From a virus (lineage: Duplodnaviria; Heunggongvirae; Uroviricota; Caudoviricetes): a stretch of DNA of 17,433 nt. The position numbers and the translations under genes were made by a program. The DNA lies in the IMG/VR virus record IMGVR_UViG_3300035678_000001; one strand, written 5' to 3'. Shown here piece by piece: positions 8,875-15,940 of this stretch (the stretch's first letter is position 1; the number at the start of each line of letters is the position of its first letter). The notes under the pieces are model-generated. The model saw only the letters and a program-made list of their open reading frames with translations. It was not told where the DNA came from and did no database searches.

Positions 8875-9425
8875 ATCTTCGCCAGCACTTCCTCGACCTT
8901 GCCGTTCAGTGCGAGGTACTCACCGAACACGTAGTCGATGGTGGGCGGGAACCAGTCCTTGACCCTCTCGAACCGCTGCTGCAAGGCGGCGGTGGGAGTG
9001 ATCTTCTCGAAGGGGAGGGGCAGTGGCTGCCCATCGACTGCGACCACTGTGGCTGCCACTGTCGCCATCGTGTAGGCCCGGTTCTCGGCAATCGTCCCGG
9101 CGTACGGGGCGGTCACCTGCGCGACTGCGAGGATCTCGCCGCCGTTGAGCGTCCTGATGGTGAAGCGGTGTCCCATGTAGTCGAAGGTCTTCGAGAGCGA
9201 TCCCAGGAACAGCAGGCCGTTGAAGTCCTCTTGCCACTGGGGGTCGAACTCTGGGAGATCTTCGTCTTGCTCGTCCTCGGCTTCGTTCGCTTCCTCGCCC
9301 GTGCCCGGTTGTGAGTCCGACATCCCGGAGAGGTACTGCGTCTCGACGGGCGGCTCTGTAGTTGGGGCATCAGCGGTCACGAAGTCGGGGGCGTTGTTCT
9401 GCTCCGACTCCTCCGGCAACGGCAT
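8856..9425 (-). CDS. Tail assembly chaperone (189 aa; start re-called to ATG 9425)
   Basis: RBS GGAGGA before ATG CCG TTG (MPLPEESEQ). Acidic N-terminus, TFDYMGHRFTIRTL...E motif, position after the tube gene. The track extension to 9809 overlaps the tube gene and is not real. Confidence 0.85.
   Translation of the reverse strand: MPLPEESEQNNAPDFVTADAPTTEPPVETQYLSGMSDSQPGTGEEANEAEDEQDEDLPEFDPQWQEDFNGLLFLGSLSKTFDYMGHRFTIRTLNGGEILAVAQVTAPYAGTIAENRAYTMATVAATVVAVDGQPLPLPFEKITPTAALQQRFERVKDWFPPTIDYVFGEYLALNGKVEEVLAKMGEAFG
8868..8874 (-). other. -1 programmed ribosomal frameshift slippery site G GGG GAA
   Basis: mRNA AUG GGG GAA GCG UUC GGC UAG near the end of the chaperone gene. A -1 slip enters the downstream ORF frame with no intervening stop. 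GGGGGAA is the heptamer known from mycobacteriophage tail chaperones. Confidence 0.8.
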
Positions 9426-9451
9426 GTTGGTTCCTCCTGGGAGTGGGTGGA

Positions 9452-10036
9452 CTAGCGCCCGACAGTGGCGCCGCTCGGGAGGCCACCGTTCGGCACGGTG
9501 TTGGCCGACTGGTGCGTGAACTTGTTCGGCTTGTTGACGCCGGACAGCGGGGTCGTGTGGGTGTAGGCGACCGTGATGCCCTTGGTCACCGACAGCGCGC
9601 CGACCGTGATCGTGTCGCCGTCGTTGATGTCCACGACGGTGCAGTTCTGGTAGATCTTGCCTCGCACCGGCAGGCCCGTGCCGGGCGGCGGGATGATCGT
9701 CGTGCGGCACGTGACGTACTGCGGGTTCTCGGCCAGCACCTCGAAGATGTCCACGATGTTCTGGCTGCTGGACAGCCCCTTCAACTGCTGCCAGACCGGC
9801 GCGTTCCACAACTCGCGGATCGTGAGCATGAGGGTGCCACCGGAGAGCACGCGGCTCGTGGCGATCTCGACCGGGTGGCGGTAGCCCAGCGGGTGGATGA
9901 ACTGGTAGCCCGCTCCGAGGTCGGAGAAGGCCCGCTGGCCGCTGTCCTCGATCTGCTCAAGGAAGGCGATGGGCTGGCCGTTGTAGTCGAACGTCGTGAA
10001 GCCGGAGCCAACGACGCGGACCTGGGTGTTGGGCAT
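9452..10036 (-). CDS. Tail tube protein (194 aa)
   Basis: Follows the sheath gene, with RBS AGGAG. Beta-rich tube-like pattern (GGTLMLTIRELWN...KIYQNCTVVDINDGDTITVGALSVTKGITVAY) plus a short C-terminal extension. Confidence 0.85.
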   Translation of the reverse strand: MPNTQVRVVGSGFTTFDYNGQPIAFLEQIEDSGQRAFSDLGAGYQFIHPLGYRHPVEIATSRVLSGGTLMLTIRELWNAPVWQQLKGLSSSQNIVDIFEVLAENPQYVTCRTTIIPPPGTGLPVRGKIYQNCTVVDINDGDTITVGALSVTKGITVAYTHTTPLSGVNKPNKFTHQSANTVPNGGLPSGATVGR

Positions 10037-11522: not shown

Positions 11523-11564
11523 GCTCTCACCCCTTCACAGGAGCGGGGCCGGGTTGGACAGGAG
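11523..11564 (-). promoter_or_regulatory. Conserved bipartite motif, copy 1 (candidate phage promoter), upstream of the sheath gene
   Basis: Minus strand TCCTGT-N16-CCTGTGAAGGGGTGA; 39/42 nt identical to 15566-15607. Confidence 0.7.
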
Positions 11565-11581
11565 CCTGCGACGATGGCTCC

Positions 11582-11932
11582 GTGGTTCTGCTAAACGAGT
11601 GCTCGGCCCTCGGCTGCTACGGCGACGTGCTCGCCAAGGGGCTCTGTCCGATGCACTACTTCCGCCAGCGCCGCACCGGGACCACCCGGAGACTCACGCC
11701 CGAGCAGCGGTTCTGGCTCCGTGTCTCCAAGATCGGCCACGACGGCTGCTGGCTGTGGATCGGAGCCGTCCGGGAGGGCCACGGCTACTGGCGGGGCCGC
11801 AAGGCCCACCGGGTGGCCTACGAGTACCTCATGGGCTCACTCGGCGGCAGGACCACCGAGCACGCCTGTGGGCAGCCGCTGTGTGTCCGGCCAGCCCACC
11901 TGCGGCTCACTGCCAGGCGAACGTCCCCGTAG
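11582..11932 (+). CDS. HNH (His-Me finger) homing-endonuclease-like protein, probably C-terminally truncated (~116 aa)
   Basis: CSALGC...AKGLCPMHY.R..R.G, RFW.RV.K...CWLWIGA, AHRVAYE, EHACGQPLCVRPAHL. Ends LTARRTSP* without the usual downstream Asn-containing helix. It is the only plus-strand gene. The GTG start is uncertain (no clear RBS). Confidence 0.8.
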   Translation: MVLLNECSALGCYGDVLAKGLCPMHYFRQRRTGTTRRLTPEQRFWLRVSKIGHDGCWLWIGAVREGHGYWRGRKAHRVAYEYLMGSLGGRTTEHACGQPLCVRPAHLRLTARRTSP

Positions 11933-12551
11933 CGCCGGGATCGTCCGGGTGGTCGTCGGTGATGTCCGCGATGCGGTCGAAGACGCGGATCTCGCGCAGC
12001 GGCACGAGCGCCTGACCGGCGCCCTCGGAGACGAACTCCCCGATGATGTCCAACTGGATCGACCGCTCGTACATCATCTCGTCGGTGCCCCAGGGCGTGC
12101 CGGGCGCCGCAGCGTTGCCGCGCACCGCGATGGTGTCGAAGTTGATGTTGCAGCCGATGAGGTCGTTGTTCTCGATGTAGGCCCGGAACTCGCCCACCTG
12201 ATCGGTGGTGGAGTCGAAGGCGACCACGCGGATCAACTCGTCGTAGAGCCGGTCACGCTCCAACGACGACATCGCCACGACGGTGAGCGAGACGGTCCCG
12301 GCGAACTTCCAGCGGGTGTAGCGGCGCCGGGCTCCGTTCGGGCCGGGCTGGGTGAACTCGCGGTGGTGGACGCCAGCGATCTGCAACGGCGAGGTGTCGT
12401 CGTAGTCCACCCAGATGGCGGGCACCTCCTGCTCGGCCACCGGGTACTCGATGGACGTGCGAATGCCCCGGAAGTCGGCCTCGGGGTAGTCCTGATCGAA
12501 CTGCTCCTTGACGGCCTCCACGATGAGCGCCTTGAGCCGGGTGAGGTACAT
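11907..12551 (-). CDS. Tail terminator / sheath completion protein (214 aa)
   Basis: TGATG-coupled and upstream of the sheath gene. The pattern IEYP.....VPAIWVDY...F.GTVSLTVVAMSSLERDRLYDELI resembles tail terminator proteins. Confidence 0.7.
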   Translation of the reverse strand: MYLTRLKALIVEAVKEQFDQDYPEADFRGIRTSIEYPVAEQEVPAIWVDYDDTSPLQIAGVHHREFTQPGPNGARRRYTRWKFAGTVSLTVVAMSSLERDRLYDELIRVVAFDSTTDQVGEFRAYIENNDLIGCNINFDTIAVRGNAAAPGTPWGTDEMMYERSIQLDIIGEFVSEGAGQALVPLREIRVFDRIADITDDHPDDPGATGTFAWQ

Positions 12552-13255
12552 CAGCGCACCTCGATGTTGGAGCGGGCGTCAGCCACGTAGATGCGGACGG
12601 GCAGGTAGCCGCCCTTCTGGGACGCGAGGCTCATGGCGTTGTTCAGGAACAGCCGGGGCTTGAGGCCGGGGTGGCGCCACTTCACGCCGATGTTGCCCTT
12701 GGCGATGCGCCCGCCCGTGCGACCCATCGTGGTCATCGAGCCAGCCGCCTCACGCACGCCGATCCGGCCAGGGGCGCCGGGGTAGGACGCGGGCCGCACC
12801 GTGGTGACCATCTGGCCGGTCGCCTTGTCCTTCGTCCGCTTGGTGACGGTGGTGCCCTTGACGGCTGCCTTGCGGAAGATCAGCACCTGCGTCTTGCCCG
12901 AGAGGGTCTGGCGCGTCTTGGCCTTGGGGTTCTTCTGGCGCTCGACACCCGTGGGGTCGTCAATCCACATCGGGATGACCTTGCCCTGCAAGTTGTTCAT
13001 GGTGAACGGTCGGATGCCGTTCTCCTGAAACCACACGTAGGAGTCTTGGAACGCCACGCCGAAGAAGCCGTCGCCGTAGAGCGGCGTCATGCGCGAGGCA
13101 GCGCCGCCGGACATCTTCGGCATCAGCAACTTGGCCTGCTGGGTGGCGTACTCGGCCATCGCCTTGGCCTTGGCTCGACGCAGCCCTGGGATCGTCATGA
13201 CCATCCGGTCGGGCCGGTCGCTCATGATGATCTCGGGGACTTCGGGGGCAGCCAC
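12551..13255 (-). CDS. Putative tail completion / neck protein, HK97 gp10-like, strongly basic (234 aa; start re-called to GTG 13255)
   Basis: RBS AGGAG five nt before the GTG. Motifs YVWFQENGIRPF and WRHPGLKPRLFLNNAM resemble the HK97 gp10 family. The track extension to 13900 overlaps the next gene out of frame. Confidence 0.6.
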   Translation of the reverse strand: MAAPEVPEIIMSDRPDRMVMTIPGLRRAKAKAMAEYATQQAKLLMPKMSGGAASRMTPLYGDGFFGVAFQDSYVWFQENGIRPFTMNNLQGKVIPMWIDDPTGVERQKNPKAKTRQTLSGKTQVLIFRKAAVKGTTVTKRTKDKATGQMVTTVRPASYPGAPGRIGVREAAGSMTTMGRTGGRIAKGNIGVKWRHPGLKPRLFLNNAMSLASQKGGYLPVRIYVADARSNIEVR

Positions 13256-13257
13256 GG

Positions 13258-13944
13258 CTACTCCTGAAACGAGATCGGCGTGGCGGGCGGGATGAGGGCG
13301 CCACGGATGTCCTCGTACGTCGAGAAGTCCTTCGGGAAGAACGACTGGACGTTGAGGATGGCCGCGACCTCGGCAGGGGTCGGCGGGATCAGGAAGGCCA
13401 CGCTCGTCTCGTTCTCCTGCTGGGCGCGGGCCGAGTTGTAGCCGATGGCATCCATGCCCTGGGTCGGCATCCCGAAGCCGGTGCGCAGGGTGATGCGCTC
13501 GGGCACGCGCAACTGCCAACGGGTGCCGTTGCCCCGGAAGGCGTAGTCGCCCGAGCGGATGCGGAAGTCGCTGGTCGTCTCGATCTGCACGTCGTCGGGC
13601 GACACGATGCCGCGCCGGTCCAACTTCTCGTCCTCGTCGGTGTCGGTGAAGATCGAGGGCCGCACGATGCGGGCGCGGTAGCCGCCCTCGAACGTCGTGC
13701 CGAAGCAGTCGGGGCACTTGTTCTTGGCGGGCTGCTGGTACGCCTCCGCGATGCGCCCGTACGACGTGTAGCAGGCCGTGCATCGCTGGACTCGGCCAGC
13801 CTCGAAGTCCTCCAAGTGCCACATGAGGACGAACATCGTCCACTCGCCTACGTGGTAGATGGCCTCGTTGTGACGGAGGTGCTCCTGCTGGACAGCCCAC
13901 TCCTGGCGCTGCCGCAGGTAGTAAGGCTGGACCTCATGAGGCAT
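13258..13944 (-). CDS. Head closure / neck protein with CxxC...CxxC motif (228 aa)
   Basis: RCTACY...KCPDCFGTTFEGGY followed by a beta-barrel-like region (IRSGDY.F..NGTRWQL); located between the adaptor and completion genes. Confidence 0.65.
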   Translation of the reverse strand: MPHEVQPYYLRQRQEWAVQQEHLRHNEAIYHVGEWTMFVLMWHLEDFEAGRVQRCTACYTSYGRIAEAYQQPAKNKCPDCFGTTFEGGYRARIVRPSIFTDTDEDEKLDRRGIVSPDDVQIETTSDFRIRSGDYAFRGNGTRWQLRVPERITLRTGFGMPTQGMDAIGYNSARAQQENETSVAFLIPPTPAEVAAILNVQSFFPKDFSTYEDIRGALIPPATPISFQE

Positions 13945-14044
13945 GGCGCTTCTTGTTCTTCCGGGCGCAGGCTCGACGGCACTCGCGGTTCTGACAGACG
14001 TGCCGGGTCATCGCCGGACCCCACCACGCCCCACCCGAGGGCAT
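13934..14044 (-). CDS. Small basic Cys/His-rich ORF (36 aa), unannotated
   Basis: ATG overlaps the adaptor stop (TGATG). MPSGGAWWGPAMTRHVCQNRECRRACARKNKKRHAS*. It spans the ~100-nt gap and overlaps the next gene's start by 11 nt. Confidence 0.5.
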   Translation of the reverse strand: MPSGGAWWGPAMTRHVCQNRECRRACARKNKKRHAS

Positions 14045-14937
14045 CAGTAGAACCTTGACCAGTAGCGAGGCCGAGCGGCCACCGAGCCAGCGAAGCGCGT
14101 CGGGCCGTAGCGACCGTAGACGCCGCCGCTGACGAGCACACGCGGCTTGCCGAGCCCCATGTTGCTGATCTTGAAGATGTCGAGTTGGCCCTTGAGGGTG
14201 GCGCGCTCGTCGTCCAGCACCGCCTGCCACCGCTGCATGTAGTCGCGGCGGTCGAGGCGGGTGACGTTGCCGCCCATGAACATCGGCTGCTCGACGTAGG
14301 AGCGCACGAGGTGCTTGAGCACCTCGACGTAGAGCGCCTGCTCCAACAGCGGTCCCCACTGCTGCACCGGGAACTGGCCGGGCATGTCGATGCTGTAGGT
14401 CTGGAAGGGCTGGGCCGTGGTGTTGAGCAGGCCGACCGCGACCTTGAGCAGTTGGGCCACCCGGCCACGAGAGAAGTGGCTCTGGAAGTACGTCTGCAAG
14501 TTCGGCCCGCCGAGCGGCGAGTCGAACAGGTCCGCGAAGCGGAACCACACGTCGTCCACGACGGTCTTCATCTCGGCGGGCAGGTTGTCGTACGCCGGGT
14601 TGCTCGCGCCGATCTGGATGAACGAGCGGTACTGCTCGGTCACCGCGTCGATGGCGTAGTCCCACAGCACCGTGTAGTCGCCGGGGTCCGAGGTGTCGTT
14701 CGAGTCGAGGGCCAACTCGTAGAGCCCCGTCGCCACGTGGGTCGCCGGGCGGGTGAAGATGTTGACCGGCGGCGTGTCCGGGATGACCGCCGAGTTGGAC
14801 TCGATGGCGTCCTGCACCAGCGTGACCATGACGACGTTGCCGTCTACGTCGGCGGGCACGCCCTGCTTGTGGACAGCCAGGCCCAGCACGTCTGCCGCGT
14901 ACTGGCTGACGTACTGGCGCTCCCGGAAGTCCGTCAC
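14044..14937 (-). CDS. Head-to-tail adaptor (neck) protein with N-terminal Ig-like domain (297 aa)
   Basis: GTG start with GAGG RBS. N-terminal beta-sandwich-like region (GLYELAL.....SDPGDYTVLWDY) and helical C-terminal region (LLEQALYVEVLKHL...RDYMQRWQAVL). First gene of the neck cluster. Confidence 0.65.
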   Translation of the reverse strand: MTDFRERQYVSQYAADVLGLAVHKQGVPADVDGNVVMVTLVQDAIESNSAVIPDTPPVNIFTRPATHVATGLYELALDSNDTSDPGDYTVLWDYAIDAVTEQYRSFIQIGASNPAYDNLPAEMKTVVDDVWFRFADLFDSPLGGPNLQTYFQSHFSRGRVAQLLKVAVGLLNTTAQPFQTYSIDMPGQFPVQQWGPLLEQALYVEVLKHLVRSYVEQPMFMGGNVTRLDRRDYMQRWQAVLDDERATLKGQLDIFKISNMGLGKPRVLVSGGVYGRYGPTRFAGSVAARPRYWSRFY

Positions 14938-14948
14938 GACCTCGTGGC

Positions 14949-15548
14949 CTAGATGACGCCGATGAGCATGATCGTCACGGCGGACGTGACGGGAGAGCCA
15001 TTCTGGTCGAGGATGCGCACGCGCAGCGTCGTGGACGTGAAGTTGTGCGGCAGGATCGTCGCCGGGATGCCGCCACCGCCGGTCGGGCCGAGGCCGCTGG
15101 CCGTGACGACGCCGGGCGTGAAGCCGAAGCCGTGGGTCAGGTCGTGGAAGCCCGAGCCGTCCGGCGTGAAGGACGCGAAGCGACCGGACAGGCCGCTGGT
15201 GTTGCCCTGGGTGACCGTGCCGCCGGAGCCGCCGGACGCGGGCGGCGGGTTGCCGGGCGAGTAGAAGTACGCCGCCGGGTGACCCTGCAACGTCGCGGCG
15301 TCAGAGCCGCCGCCACCACCCGCGTGGGTGTGGTCAGCCGTGGCGAAGTAGGCAGCCGGGTGGCCCTGCAAGGTCGAGGCGTCACCGACAGTGCCGCCAC
15401 CGCCTCCACCGCCGCCGCCAGCAGCCGCCTGCGCGGCCTCGTAGATCTTCTGGTCGATCAGGTCGTACGCAGTGGCGAAGTCAGCAGCCCGGAACGGGTC
15501 CGACCCCGCAGGCTTGATGATGCCGTAGTGCGCAGTGGGCGTACCCAT
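14949..15548 (-). CDS. Fibre-like structural protein (199 aa) with poly-Gly linkers and duplicated DA(S/A)TLQGHPAAYF
   Basis: RBS GGAGGAG. The DAxTLxG repeats and an HTH(His-Thr-His) motif are typical of trimeric phage fibres; C-terminal beta domain. Confidence 0.65.
   Translation of the reverse strand: MGTPTAHYGIIKPAGSDPFRAADFATAYDLIDQKIYEAAQAAAGGGGGGGGGTVGDASTLQGHPAAYFATADHTHAGGGGGSDAATLQGHPAAYFYSPGNPPPASGGSGGTVTQGNTSGLSGRFASFTPDGSGFHDLTHGFGFTPGVVTASGLGPTGGGGIPATILPHNFTSTTLRVRILDQNGSPVTSAVTIMLIGVI
15264..15383. repeat. 39-nt direct repeat (34/39 identical, 81 nt apart) within the fibre-like gene
   Basis: 15264-15302 versus 15345-15383; encodes the duplicated 13-aa motif. Confidence 0.85.
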
Positions 15549-15565
15549 GTCGATCTCCTCCCGAG

Positions 15566-15607
15566 GCTCTCACCCCTTCACAGGAGCGAGGCGGGGTTCG
15601 ACAGGAG
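15566..15607 (-). promoter_or_regulatory. Conserved bipartite motif, copy 2, upstream of the fibre/neck gene cluster
   Basis: Minus strand TCCTGT-N16-CCTGTGAAGGGGTGA; 39/42 nt identical to copy 1. Confidence 0.7.
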
Positions 15608-15617
15608 GCCGACCGCT

Positions 15618-15833
15618 TTAGGCGGACAGCGGCTCGGGCACGGGCTCTCTGTACGCCTCGGTGAGGGCCGCTGCTGCCATCCGCTCGTACTTGGCGTGCT
15701 GGGACGGGTGGAGCGCCTCGAAGGCCACCACGTGGGGCTGTCCGGCGTGCTCGGCCATGTAGATGACGCAGGCCGTCCGGCACACGAGAGAGTCCGGTGC
15801 CGACTTGGAGATCTTGTCCTTGGTGAGCGCCAC
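15618..15833 (-). CDS. Small hypothetical protein (71 aa; start re-called to GTG 15833)
   Basis: RBS GGGAGG before GTG GCG CTC ACC AAG; lies between motif copies 3 and 2. Confidence 0.7.
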   Translation of the reverse strand: MALTKDKISKSAPDSLVCRTACVIYMAEHAGQPHVVAFEALHPSQHAKYERMAAAALTEAYREPVPEPLSA

Positions 15834-15848
15834 GGCGGCACCTCCCTT

Positions 15849-15884
15849 CACCCCTTCACAGGTGATGTGACCGCCACCACAGGA
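15849..15884 (-). promoter_or_regulatory. Conserved bipartite motif, copy 3 (divergent spacer), upstream of the 71-aa ORF
   Basis: TCCTGT-N16-CCTGTGAAGGGGTGA with the same 21-bp spacing of the two CCTGT boxes but an unrelated spacer sequence. Confidence 0.65.
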
Positions 15885-15940
15885 CGAAGGCCCGCCCCAT
15901 CCTCACCCGGTAGCGCGGGTTAGGAAGGGACGGGCCTTCG
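15885..15940 (-). terminator. Long imperfect hairpin, candidate intrinsic terminator or processing site
   Basis: cgaaggcccg (15885-15894) pairs perfectly with cgggccttcg (15931-15940). On the minus strand the pairing continues through tcccttcct/aggatgggg and acccg/cgggt. There is no clear U-tract. Confidence 0.65.

Follow-up and report, generated by a model that had tools for sequence, protein, structure and literature searches.

Phage T4 splits the functions of sigma between separate proteins, gp55 being region-2-like and gp33 binding the flap, and Bacillus phage SPO1 has a sigma cascade made up of gp28 and gp33/gp34. The late promoters of T4 operate with gp55, gp33 and gp45 (PMC11598898), and phage phiEco32 employs gp36 with gp79 (PMC12276001, PMC8948821). 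In phage D29 the gp53-gp52 module binds mycobacterial RNA polymerase, gp53 doing so 1:1 and displacing SigA/RbpA; gp53 is missed by standard sigma models and was modelled on sigma domains 2-3 (bioRxiv 10.64898/2026.10.05.756390). The late promoters of actinobacteriophages are for the most part uncharacterised; a 2022 review, according to which those known in mycobacteriophages are few, calls for work on them (PMC9262239). Here we describe a short bipartite motif found in a 17,433-nt stretch of viral DNA (the window, which is the whole stretch analysed; positions 121765-139197 of the 153,911-bp virus record IMGVR_UViG_3300035678_000001, a genome with direct terminal repeats and 66.9% G+C). In kind, the motif is most likely a phage late promoter read via phage-encoded factors, like those of T4, SPO1 and phiEco32.

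Exploring the window, we found that the 15-mer CCTGTGAAGGGGTGA matches exactly three times, each time on the minus strand (11527-11541, 15570-15584 and 15848-15862). The initial annotation, made from this sequence, had reported three copies in the same orientation; its description was correct and its ranges need one change, copy 3 beginning at 15848 and not at 15849. Exactly 21 nt upstream of the CCTGT that belongs to each copy lies another CCTGT (11537-11562, 15580-15605 and 15858-15883), and copies 1 and 2, read on the coding strand, are identical at 39 of 42 positions, both as annotated. In copy 3, alone among the copies of the genome, the upstream box has G instead of C as its sixth base. 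The distance from the end of the motif to the start codon is 26 nt at copy 1 (GTG 11500), 21 nt at copy 2 (ATG 15548) and 14 nt at copy 3 (GTG 15833), and the strong ribosome-binding site (RBS) ascribed to these starts is indeed present at all three in a GGAGG-like form. The 199-amino-acid (aa) gene behind copy 2 is followed by a run of conserved virion-region genes (phrog_2791, 2806, 2819 and 2748).

Extending the scan to the whole genome revealed 16 copies (14 exact and two near), all on one strand, while a reversed control pattern had no match genome-wide; GAAGGGGTGA is the commonest 10-mer of the entire genome. Alignment of the 16 sites gives CCTGTC, a variable stretch of 15 nt, CCTGTGAAGGGGTGA and then a purine (G at 13 sites, A at three), with CTGTC and GAAG exactly 20 nt apart at every site. 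Every copy is intergenic, in sense orientation and 9-31 nt ahead of an RBS-led start codon. Because nearly all genes (~85-95%) lie on the strand of the motif, the shared orientation of the copies alone says little; their placement just upstream of starts (16/16) is not accounted for by this bias. The genes that follow encode the tail sheath, a baseplate protein, a head-maturation-protease fusion and the endolysin, and further copies precede a 169-aa gene that is followed by the major head protein gene, and an operon of which the portal gene is the last member. The initial annotation had expected hits before capsid, portal and lysis genes, and had named random orientation or location inside genes as grounds for rejection; the first was found and the second was not. 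One copy, at 57 kb, lies ahead of an 810-aa nucleotidyltransferase/RNA-ligase-like protein. No copy lies between 24 and 54 kb, where a block of small genes is found in this phage only, and the 57-87 kb replication/recombination block holds no copy except the one at 57 kb.

Judged by its sequence, placement and conservation, the motif is probably a promoter for late genes of this phage, and we infer promoter activity from these properties; the original proposal of a phage-specific, non-housekeeping, promoter-like late-gene signal is supported. With the purine that follows the motif as the first transcribed base, CTGTC would lie at -35 to -31 and GAAGGGGTGA at -10 to -1, an arrangement of boxes that would match a bipartite promoter of the sigma type. 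In three cases the leader measures only 9-10 nt and opens with the Shine-Dalgarno (SD) sequence immediately after the motif, and therefore the start site cannot lie much past the first base after it. Other properties of sigma-type sites are also found, namely two boxes, CTGTC and GAAGGGGTGA, separated by a spacer of constrained length and unconserved sequence, and a position upstream, in gene orientation, at operon starts. The sequence itself is unlike TTGACA/TAnnnT. A sigma-70-consensus scan of the window returned no promoter, and the sigma-70 and terminator scans, of the window and of the early region, were rated uninformative. In the mechanism that we propose, host RNA polymerase would be redirected by one or more phage-encoded factors and in that state recognise the upstream box CTGTC and the downstream box GAAGGGGTGA, with exactly 20 nt between them, and transcription would start at the purine behind the motif or directly beside it, yielding short leaders (9-31 nt) that would begin at or just before the SD sequence. 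The window copies, the genes behind them and two features discussed below are listed in Table 1.

Table 1. Motif copies and associated features (coordinates refer to the window unless marked as genome coordinates)
Feature	Coordinates	Strand	Description
Copy 1	11527..11562	-	CCTGTC 11562-11557, 15-nt spacer, CCTGTGAAGGGGTGA 11541-11527; ahead of tail sheath gene
Copy 2	15570..15605	-	CCTGTC, 15-nt spacer, CCTGTGAAGGGGTGA; ahead of 199-aa gene
Copy 3	15848..15883	-	CCTGTG, 15-nt spacer, CCTGTGAAGGGGTGA; ahead of 71-aa open reading frame (ORF)
Tail sheath gene, 484 aa	10046..11500	-	Pfam Phage_sheath_1; first gene 3' of copy 1
199-aa gene	14949..15548	-	3' of copy 2; without family match
71-aa ORF	15618..15833	-	3' of copy 3; without family match
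Copy 2 hairpin (predicted)	15544..15605	-	15605-15583 pairs with leader/SD 15569-15544; downstream box in loop
P0121, 113 aa	genome 62430-62771	-	only sigma-like gene found; outside the window

Comparing the motif with described promoters, we found likenesses to several of them. Like T4 late promoters, it is a non-housekeeping phage signal before virion and lysis genes, presumably served by host core polymerase together with small sigma-replacing phage proteins. T4, however, relies on one -10 element, TATAAATA, and has no -35 box, and its gp33 is not DNA-binding, whereas this phage has a conserved box at the -35 position (consensus CTGTC-N20-GAAGGGGTGA), a candidate DNA-binding region-4-like protein and no gp55-like protein that could be found; the motif is thus not a T4-type late promoter. 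The promoters of SPO1 and phiEco32 resemble it in being bipartite, of -35/-10 type, with a phage-specific consensus and the use of host core with phage sigma-like proteins, and differ in that theirs are recognisable, complete sigma-family proteins, whereas here only a stand-alone 113-aa region-4-like protein was recognised. Extracytoplasmic function (ECF) sigma factors hold regions 2 and 4 in one protein and have a consensus of the type GGAAC-N16/17-CGT. Two short boxes at tightly fixed spacing are common to ECF promoters and the motif, and the structural matches of the region-4-like protein include many ECF region-4 domains; the consensus is another one, however, and the ECF-type model TIGR02937 gave nothing here.

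The 15 perfectly conserved bases next to the presumed start recall T7-type promoters and would suit a polymerase encoded by the phage itself, as the initial annotation had also considered, be it single-subunit or divergent multisubunit. We regard this as very improbable: the signal is bipartite with a variable spacer and not one contiguous block, and no polymerase-like protein emerged when the large proteins were scanned against Pfam and PHROG, although several large virion-region proteins remain unannotated. A PF00940 search also gave no match, its control being uninformative. What these scans did give was DnaE, primase, a DnaB-like helicase, other helicases, ribonucleotide reductase, large terminase, portal and virion proteins. 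Given that no phage polymerase was found, the phage most likely uses the host enzyme.

The position of the motif, always just upstream of the RBS, could also point to an element that acts in the mRNA leader, such as a processing site, a ribosome standby or SD-like site, or a site at which a protein binds the mRNA. GAAGGGGTGA is purine-rich and SD-like, its GGGGUGA can pair with the anti-SD sequence, and in unrelated viral contigs the same 15-mer could plausibly serve as the SD where genes adjoin. However, motif and start codon are separated by anything from 9 to 31 nt, and each gene has an SD of its own at correct spacing; the variants in relatives (GAAGTAGTGA, GAAGACGTAG and GAAGGGACGA) are no longer SD-like; a pair of boxes kept 20-21 nt apart by a spacer whose sequence is not conserved is a usual mark of recognition at the DNA level; and the motif region has neither an Rfam match nor a common fold. 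An RNA-level element is therefore improbable in our view. The start-associated sequences of Cluster K phages contain the SD and keep a short, constant distance from the start codon. They share with the motif that a conserved short sequence is repeated before many genes of an actinophage, and differ from it in that here the distance is variable and a separate GGAGG-like SD follows, so that the motif does not belong to that class.

We then looked at conservation. A megablast search against phages gave no match. The nearest named phages are the Mycobacterium Cluster C phages (Myrna, Alice and other Bixzunavirus) and Gordonia and Rhodococcus myophages, at ~32% sheath identity; the sheath protein of the window is 100% identical to P0001 and 32% identical to the Myrna tail sheath. 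Closer relatives, with sheath identities of 38-47% and in one case 83%, are metagenomic contigs of ~150-165 kb. These were found by an alignment-based scan, a search for related loci with the single sheath protein having given none, and ten relatives were examined as whole genomes. One complete-looking relative, the 155,356-bp contig BAAAMZ010000022.1 of GCA_039529535.1 (L060), forms a contig of its own in a Kitasatospora viridis assembly, which hints at Streptomycetaceae as hosts of this phage group.

In most relatives the sheath gene is preceded by CTGTC (or CTGTG/CTGCC), then ~20 nt, then a GAAG-rich decamer, and dozens of viral contigs show this architecture in that place. Of CTG(T/C)N-N20/21-GAAG..., each of six complete relatives has 6-17 copies in sense orientation, as against 0-2 in antisense, with unconserved spacers; position and spacing are thus kept in related phages, a point that the initial annotation had proposed to check. 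The downstream box is genome-specific, reading GAAGAGGTGA in G001, GAAGGGGTGA in G002, GAAGGGGTGR in G004, GAAGTAGTGA (with CTGCC upstream) in G010, GAAGGGAYGA in G006 and GAAAGGGAGA (with CCTGTA/G) in G015; in G007 and G013 the signal was too degenerate for counting. Among the cultured phages, Myrna has CCTGTG-N20-GAAGACATAG ahead of its sheath gene gp122 and CCTGTG-N20-GAAGAGGTGA ahead of gp115, Alice has CCTGTG-N20-GAAGAGACAG ahead of its sheath gene gp120, and Phrappuccino has CTGTG-N20-GAAAGGGGGA ahead of its sheath gene. A further 49 viral contigs matched the exact 15-mer singly and lacked the upstream box; these matches were set aside as chance occurrences or SD-like junctions and not as relatives. 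Literature searches, by sequence and for late promoters of Cluster C and actinophages, gave no account of this motif in the papers covered.

The same comparison bears on the view that the two CCTGT boxes, two helical turns apart, form the functional core and are bound by a phage activator as a tandem pair at a promoter of the host sigma factor. In this phage the second CCTGT is present at 14 of the 16 sites, exactly 21 bp from the first, and P0121 (Table 1), with a helix-turn-helix of the sigma-4/LuxR superfamily, could in principle bind twice. However, no relative conserves the bases at the second CCTGT: L059, with 83% sheath identity, reads CCCAC at this point, and in G001, G002, G004 and G010 it holds no conserved bases. 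What is conserved across relatives is the CTGTC box and a GAAG(G/A)GGTGA-like box, 20-21 nt apart, the latter being no repeat of the first, and a TAnnnT-type -10 element for the host primary sigma is lacking. The repeat of CCTGT is therefore a trait of this phage alone and does not form the functional core, the direct-repeat activator site proposed initially fails, and a tandem activator is improbable.

Returning to the late promoter as the preferred reading, we searched the genome for proteins that could read it. The initial annotation had suggested a phage sigma factor; a complete one was not recognised, while a sigma region-4-like protein, P0121, was. P0121 matches Pfam Sigma70_r4_2 (E 6.5e-5) and a PHROG 'sigma factor' family (E 1.5e-3), and its neighbours in the protein atlas are all stand-alone Sigma70_r4 proteins. 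Its structure model (pLDDT 91.8) has the predicted fold of the -35-binding helix-turn-helix domain, on which two independent structure searches agree, and the best structural matches are the -35-binding domains of SigL, CnrH, SigB, SigR, SigE, SigD, BldN and others. The top ~18 VIA rows were all sigma region 4 (Z 5.9-7.4, root-mean-square deviation 1.7-4.8, 59-82 residues), and LuxR/NarL-type regulators scored lower (Z 3.6-4.8); Z values of 5.9-7.4 can also arise from a common helical arrangement, the rows for P0121 being uniform, however. On the predicted model, the C-terminal half of P0121 thus has the sigma region 4 fold, which makes P0121 the best candidate reader of the upstream box.

The conservation of P0121 was also examined. 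It is 46-60% identical in seven relatives, as compared with ~40% for the sheath, and its family has an invariant MGVSxTNPVxxYA helix, which would fit the near-invariant CTGTC box. In the more distant G015 and G021 this helix carries TPVQQY and the boxes are of the CCTGT(G/A)AA type, a contrast between two groups only, from which G010 departs. In the proposed mechanism the CTGTC box would be read by P0121, and we put forward no reader for the downstream box; that P0121 in fact reads the motif we hold to be possible rather than probable. Some homologues of P0121 are longer: that of G010 (L176 ~9053-9619) carries an in-frame insertion of ~86 aa between the N-terminal part and the helix-turn-helix, and those of G007 (L217:17183-17860) and G013 (L186:3228-3935) have a C-terminal extension of ~120 aa in which visual inspection suggests an HNH-like pattern.

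P0121 overlaps the start of P0122 (DUF7236), and the two are conserved together. Complex prediction for P0121 and P0122 gave a score of 0.00, which speaks neither for nor against binding; the protein atlas held no usable match for P0122, and PDB profile searches with the P0121, P0122 and P0123 families gave nothing useful. The overlap of P0121 and P0122 is reminiscent of the D29 module, in which a helix-turn-helix protein likewise forms a conserved pair with a small adjacent or overlapping DUF gene; the modules differ in their Pfam families and in that P0121 resembles sigma domain 4, gp53 having been modelled on domains 2-3. Searches with PF25684 (gp53) and PF17468 (gp52), run with an E limit of 10, gave nothing in this genome, the control for PF25684 being uninformative. 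The precedent of D29 gp53 makes a region-2 mimic that escapes detection plausible here. P0123, located upstream of P0121, was considered as a region-2-like partner and rejected, as its model shows long helical hairpins with a weak resemblance to T4 UvsY (E 0.24) and the gene adjoins RecA/UvsX-like and resolvase genes. The segment at genome 62931-67841 is a recombination module, with P0123 and its weak UvsY-like fold, two Holliday-junction-resolvase-like genes and a RecA/UvsX-like recombinase. The large terminase gene (genome 57298-59346) lies within the replication/recombination block, a few genes downstream of P0121, and has no late motif of its own; a late motif follows directly after it at 57069.

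On a broader scale, a large group of ~150-kb actinobacterial myophages, uncultured for the most part but reaching the cultured Ceeclamvirinae mycobacteriophages, might share an ancient late-transcription system, in which the P0121 family would act at the CTGTC -35 box and a region-2 mimic (possibly DUF7236 or another core protein) at the GAAG box, with a downstream box that co-evolves with the lineage and, at some genes, a promoter set in a hairpin that would confine translation to late transcripts. We consider this extended scheme speculative and somewhat doubtful. The motif provides a large phage group, with members cultured on Mycobacterium smegmatis (Myrna, Alice/Bxz1-like phages and Phrappuccino), with a consensus that is concrete and open to testing, CTGTC-N20-GAAG..., plus one candidate factor. 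Were motif and factor confirmed, the result would be a sigma-replacement scheme made from a separate region-4 protein, and it would provide strong infection-dependent promoters for high-GC hosts and a means of predicting late operons in metagenomic phage genomes.

Several results weigh against a late promoter served by P0121. The Sigma70_r4_2 match of P0121 scores 22.9 bits, below the Pfam gathering cut-off of 25.7, and no sigma region 2 (PF04542), TIGR02937 ECF-type sigma or WhiB was found in the genome. Among close relatives, the recognition helix and the box do not clearly covary, and G010 retains TNPV though its upstream box is mostly CTGCC. P0121 sits a few genes upstream of the large terminase gene and could conceivably have a role in DNA recognition for packaging; no small-terminase structure was among its matches. 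In Myrna and Alice, sites of the strict pattern number only 2-3 per genome, near the counts for the reversed-pattern control. Lastly, the pairing of the motif with its leader, described below, is not a general signal: under a stricter control, in which each leader was shuffled and compared with random genome positions, motif sites as a whole did not depart from random positions (p 0.42).

RNA folding of copy 2 predicts a hairpin of -41 kcal/mol (z -3.0 against shuffles; Table 1), and copy 2 is the only one of the three window copies that folds better than shuffles. At the sheath site of G001 (-34.9 kcal/mol) and at the endolysin site of this phage, the upstream box and spacer are likewise complementary to the leader and SD, which places the downstream box in the loop. 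Cognate upstream/downstream pairs were more stable than non-cognate ones (pooled z -4.5) in a test that overstated the effect. Under the stricter control only the tail of the distribution is enriched, 14% of motif sites as against 5% of random positions having z below -2 (Fisher p 0.005), and in a repeat run 13 of 71 sites had strong site-specific hairpins. For gene e (lysozyme) and soc of T4, the late promoter is enclosed in a hairpin, by which early transcripts that read through keep the RBS concealed. The predicted pairing of the segment upstream of the presumed start with the SD leader resembles this arrangement at some sites, the endolysin site included, and differs from it in being limited to ~1 site in 6-7. 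At this minority of sites, upstream box and spacer would pair with the leader, so that transcripts reading through would hide the SD and those started at the motif would not. The hairpin is consistent with an optional add-on at some genes and with a start site between both arms.

Strong hairpins at some sites, together with the recombination and terminase neighbourhood of P0121, could also be taken to mean that the motif is a DNA site with no part in initiation, marking packaging, replication or recombination, or forming a terminator-like hairpin between operons. All 16 copies, however, face the next gene alike and lie immediately ahead of its RBS, they are confined to virion and lysis genes apart from the copy at 57 kb, and most sites have no significant hairpin. 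This explanation is accordingly quite improbable, and a late-gene promoter remains the reading that we prefer.

Examination of the DNA around the sites revealed some further features. Between copy 1 and the gene upstream of it lies a small ORF on the opposite strand (11590-11810, +); its Cys/His pattern, C..GC....C..H, is HNH-like on visual inspection, and a longer frame overlapping it had no match in Pfam or PHROG. Relatives have a small opposite-strand gene at the equivalent place (L059 4860-5141) or, as in L062 (7170-7775, with a faint match to HNH_3), just after the sheath gene. Just upstream of copy 3, a long-range inverted repeat, cgaaggcccgtccc ... ggggcgggccttcg, spans 15884-15940 on the minus strand and may be a terminator-like hairpin adjoining the promoter; its 3' arm, gggccttcgtCCTGT, is also found ahead of the motif copy at genome 144902. 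Elsewhere in the genome, outside the window, a separate SigA-like promoter family occurs at 54133, 51503, 50556, 92259 and 146167, in which a 17-nt spacer with a palindrome (CTACAAGGATCCTTGTAG-like) is followed by cctgttgtcagag, as in TTGACT-N17-TACCGT at 54133. In contrast to the late motif, this palindromic-spacer family is probably an early or repressible promoter class.

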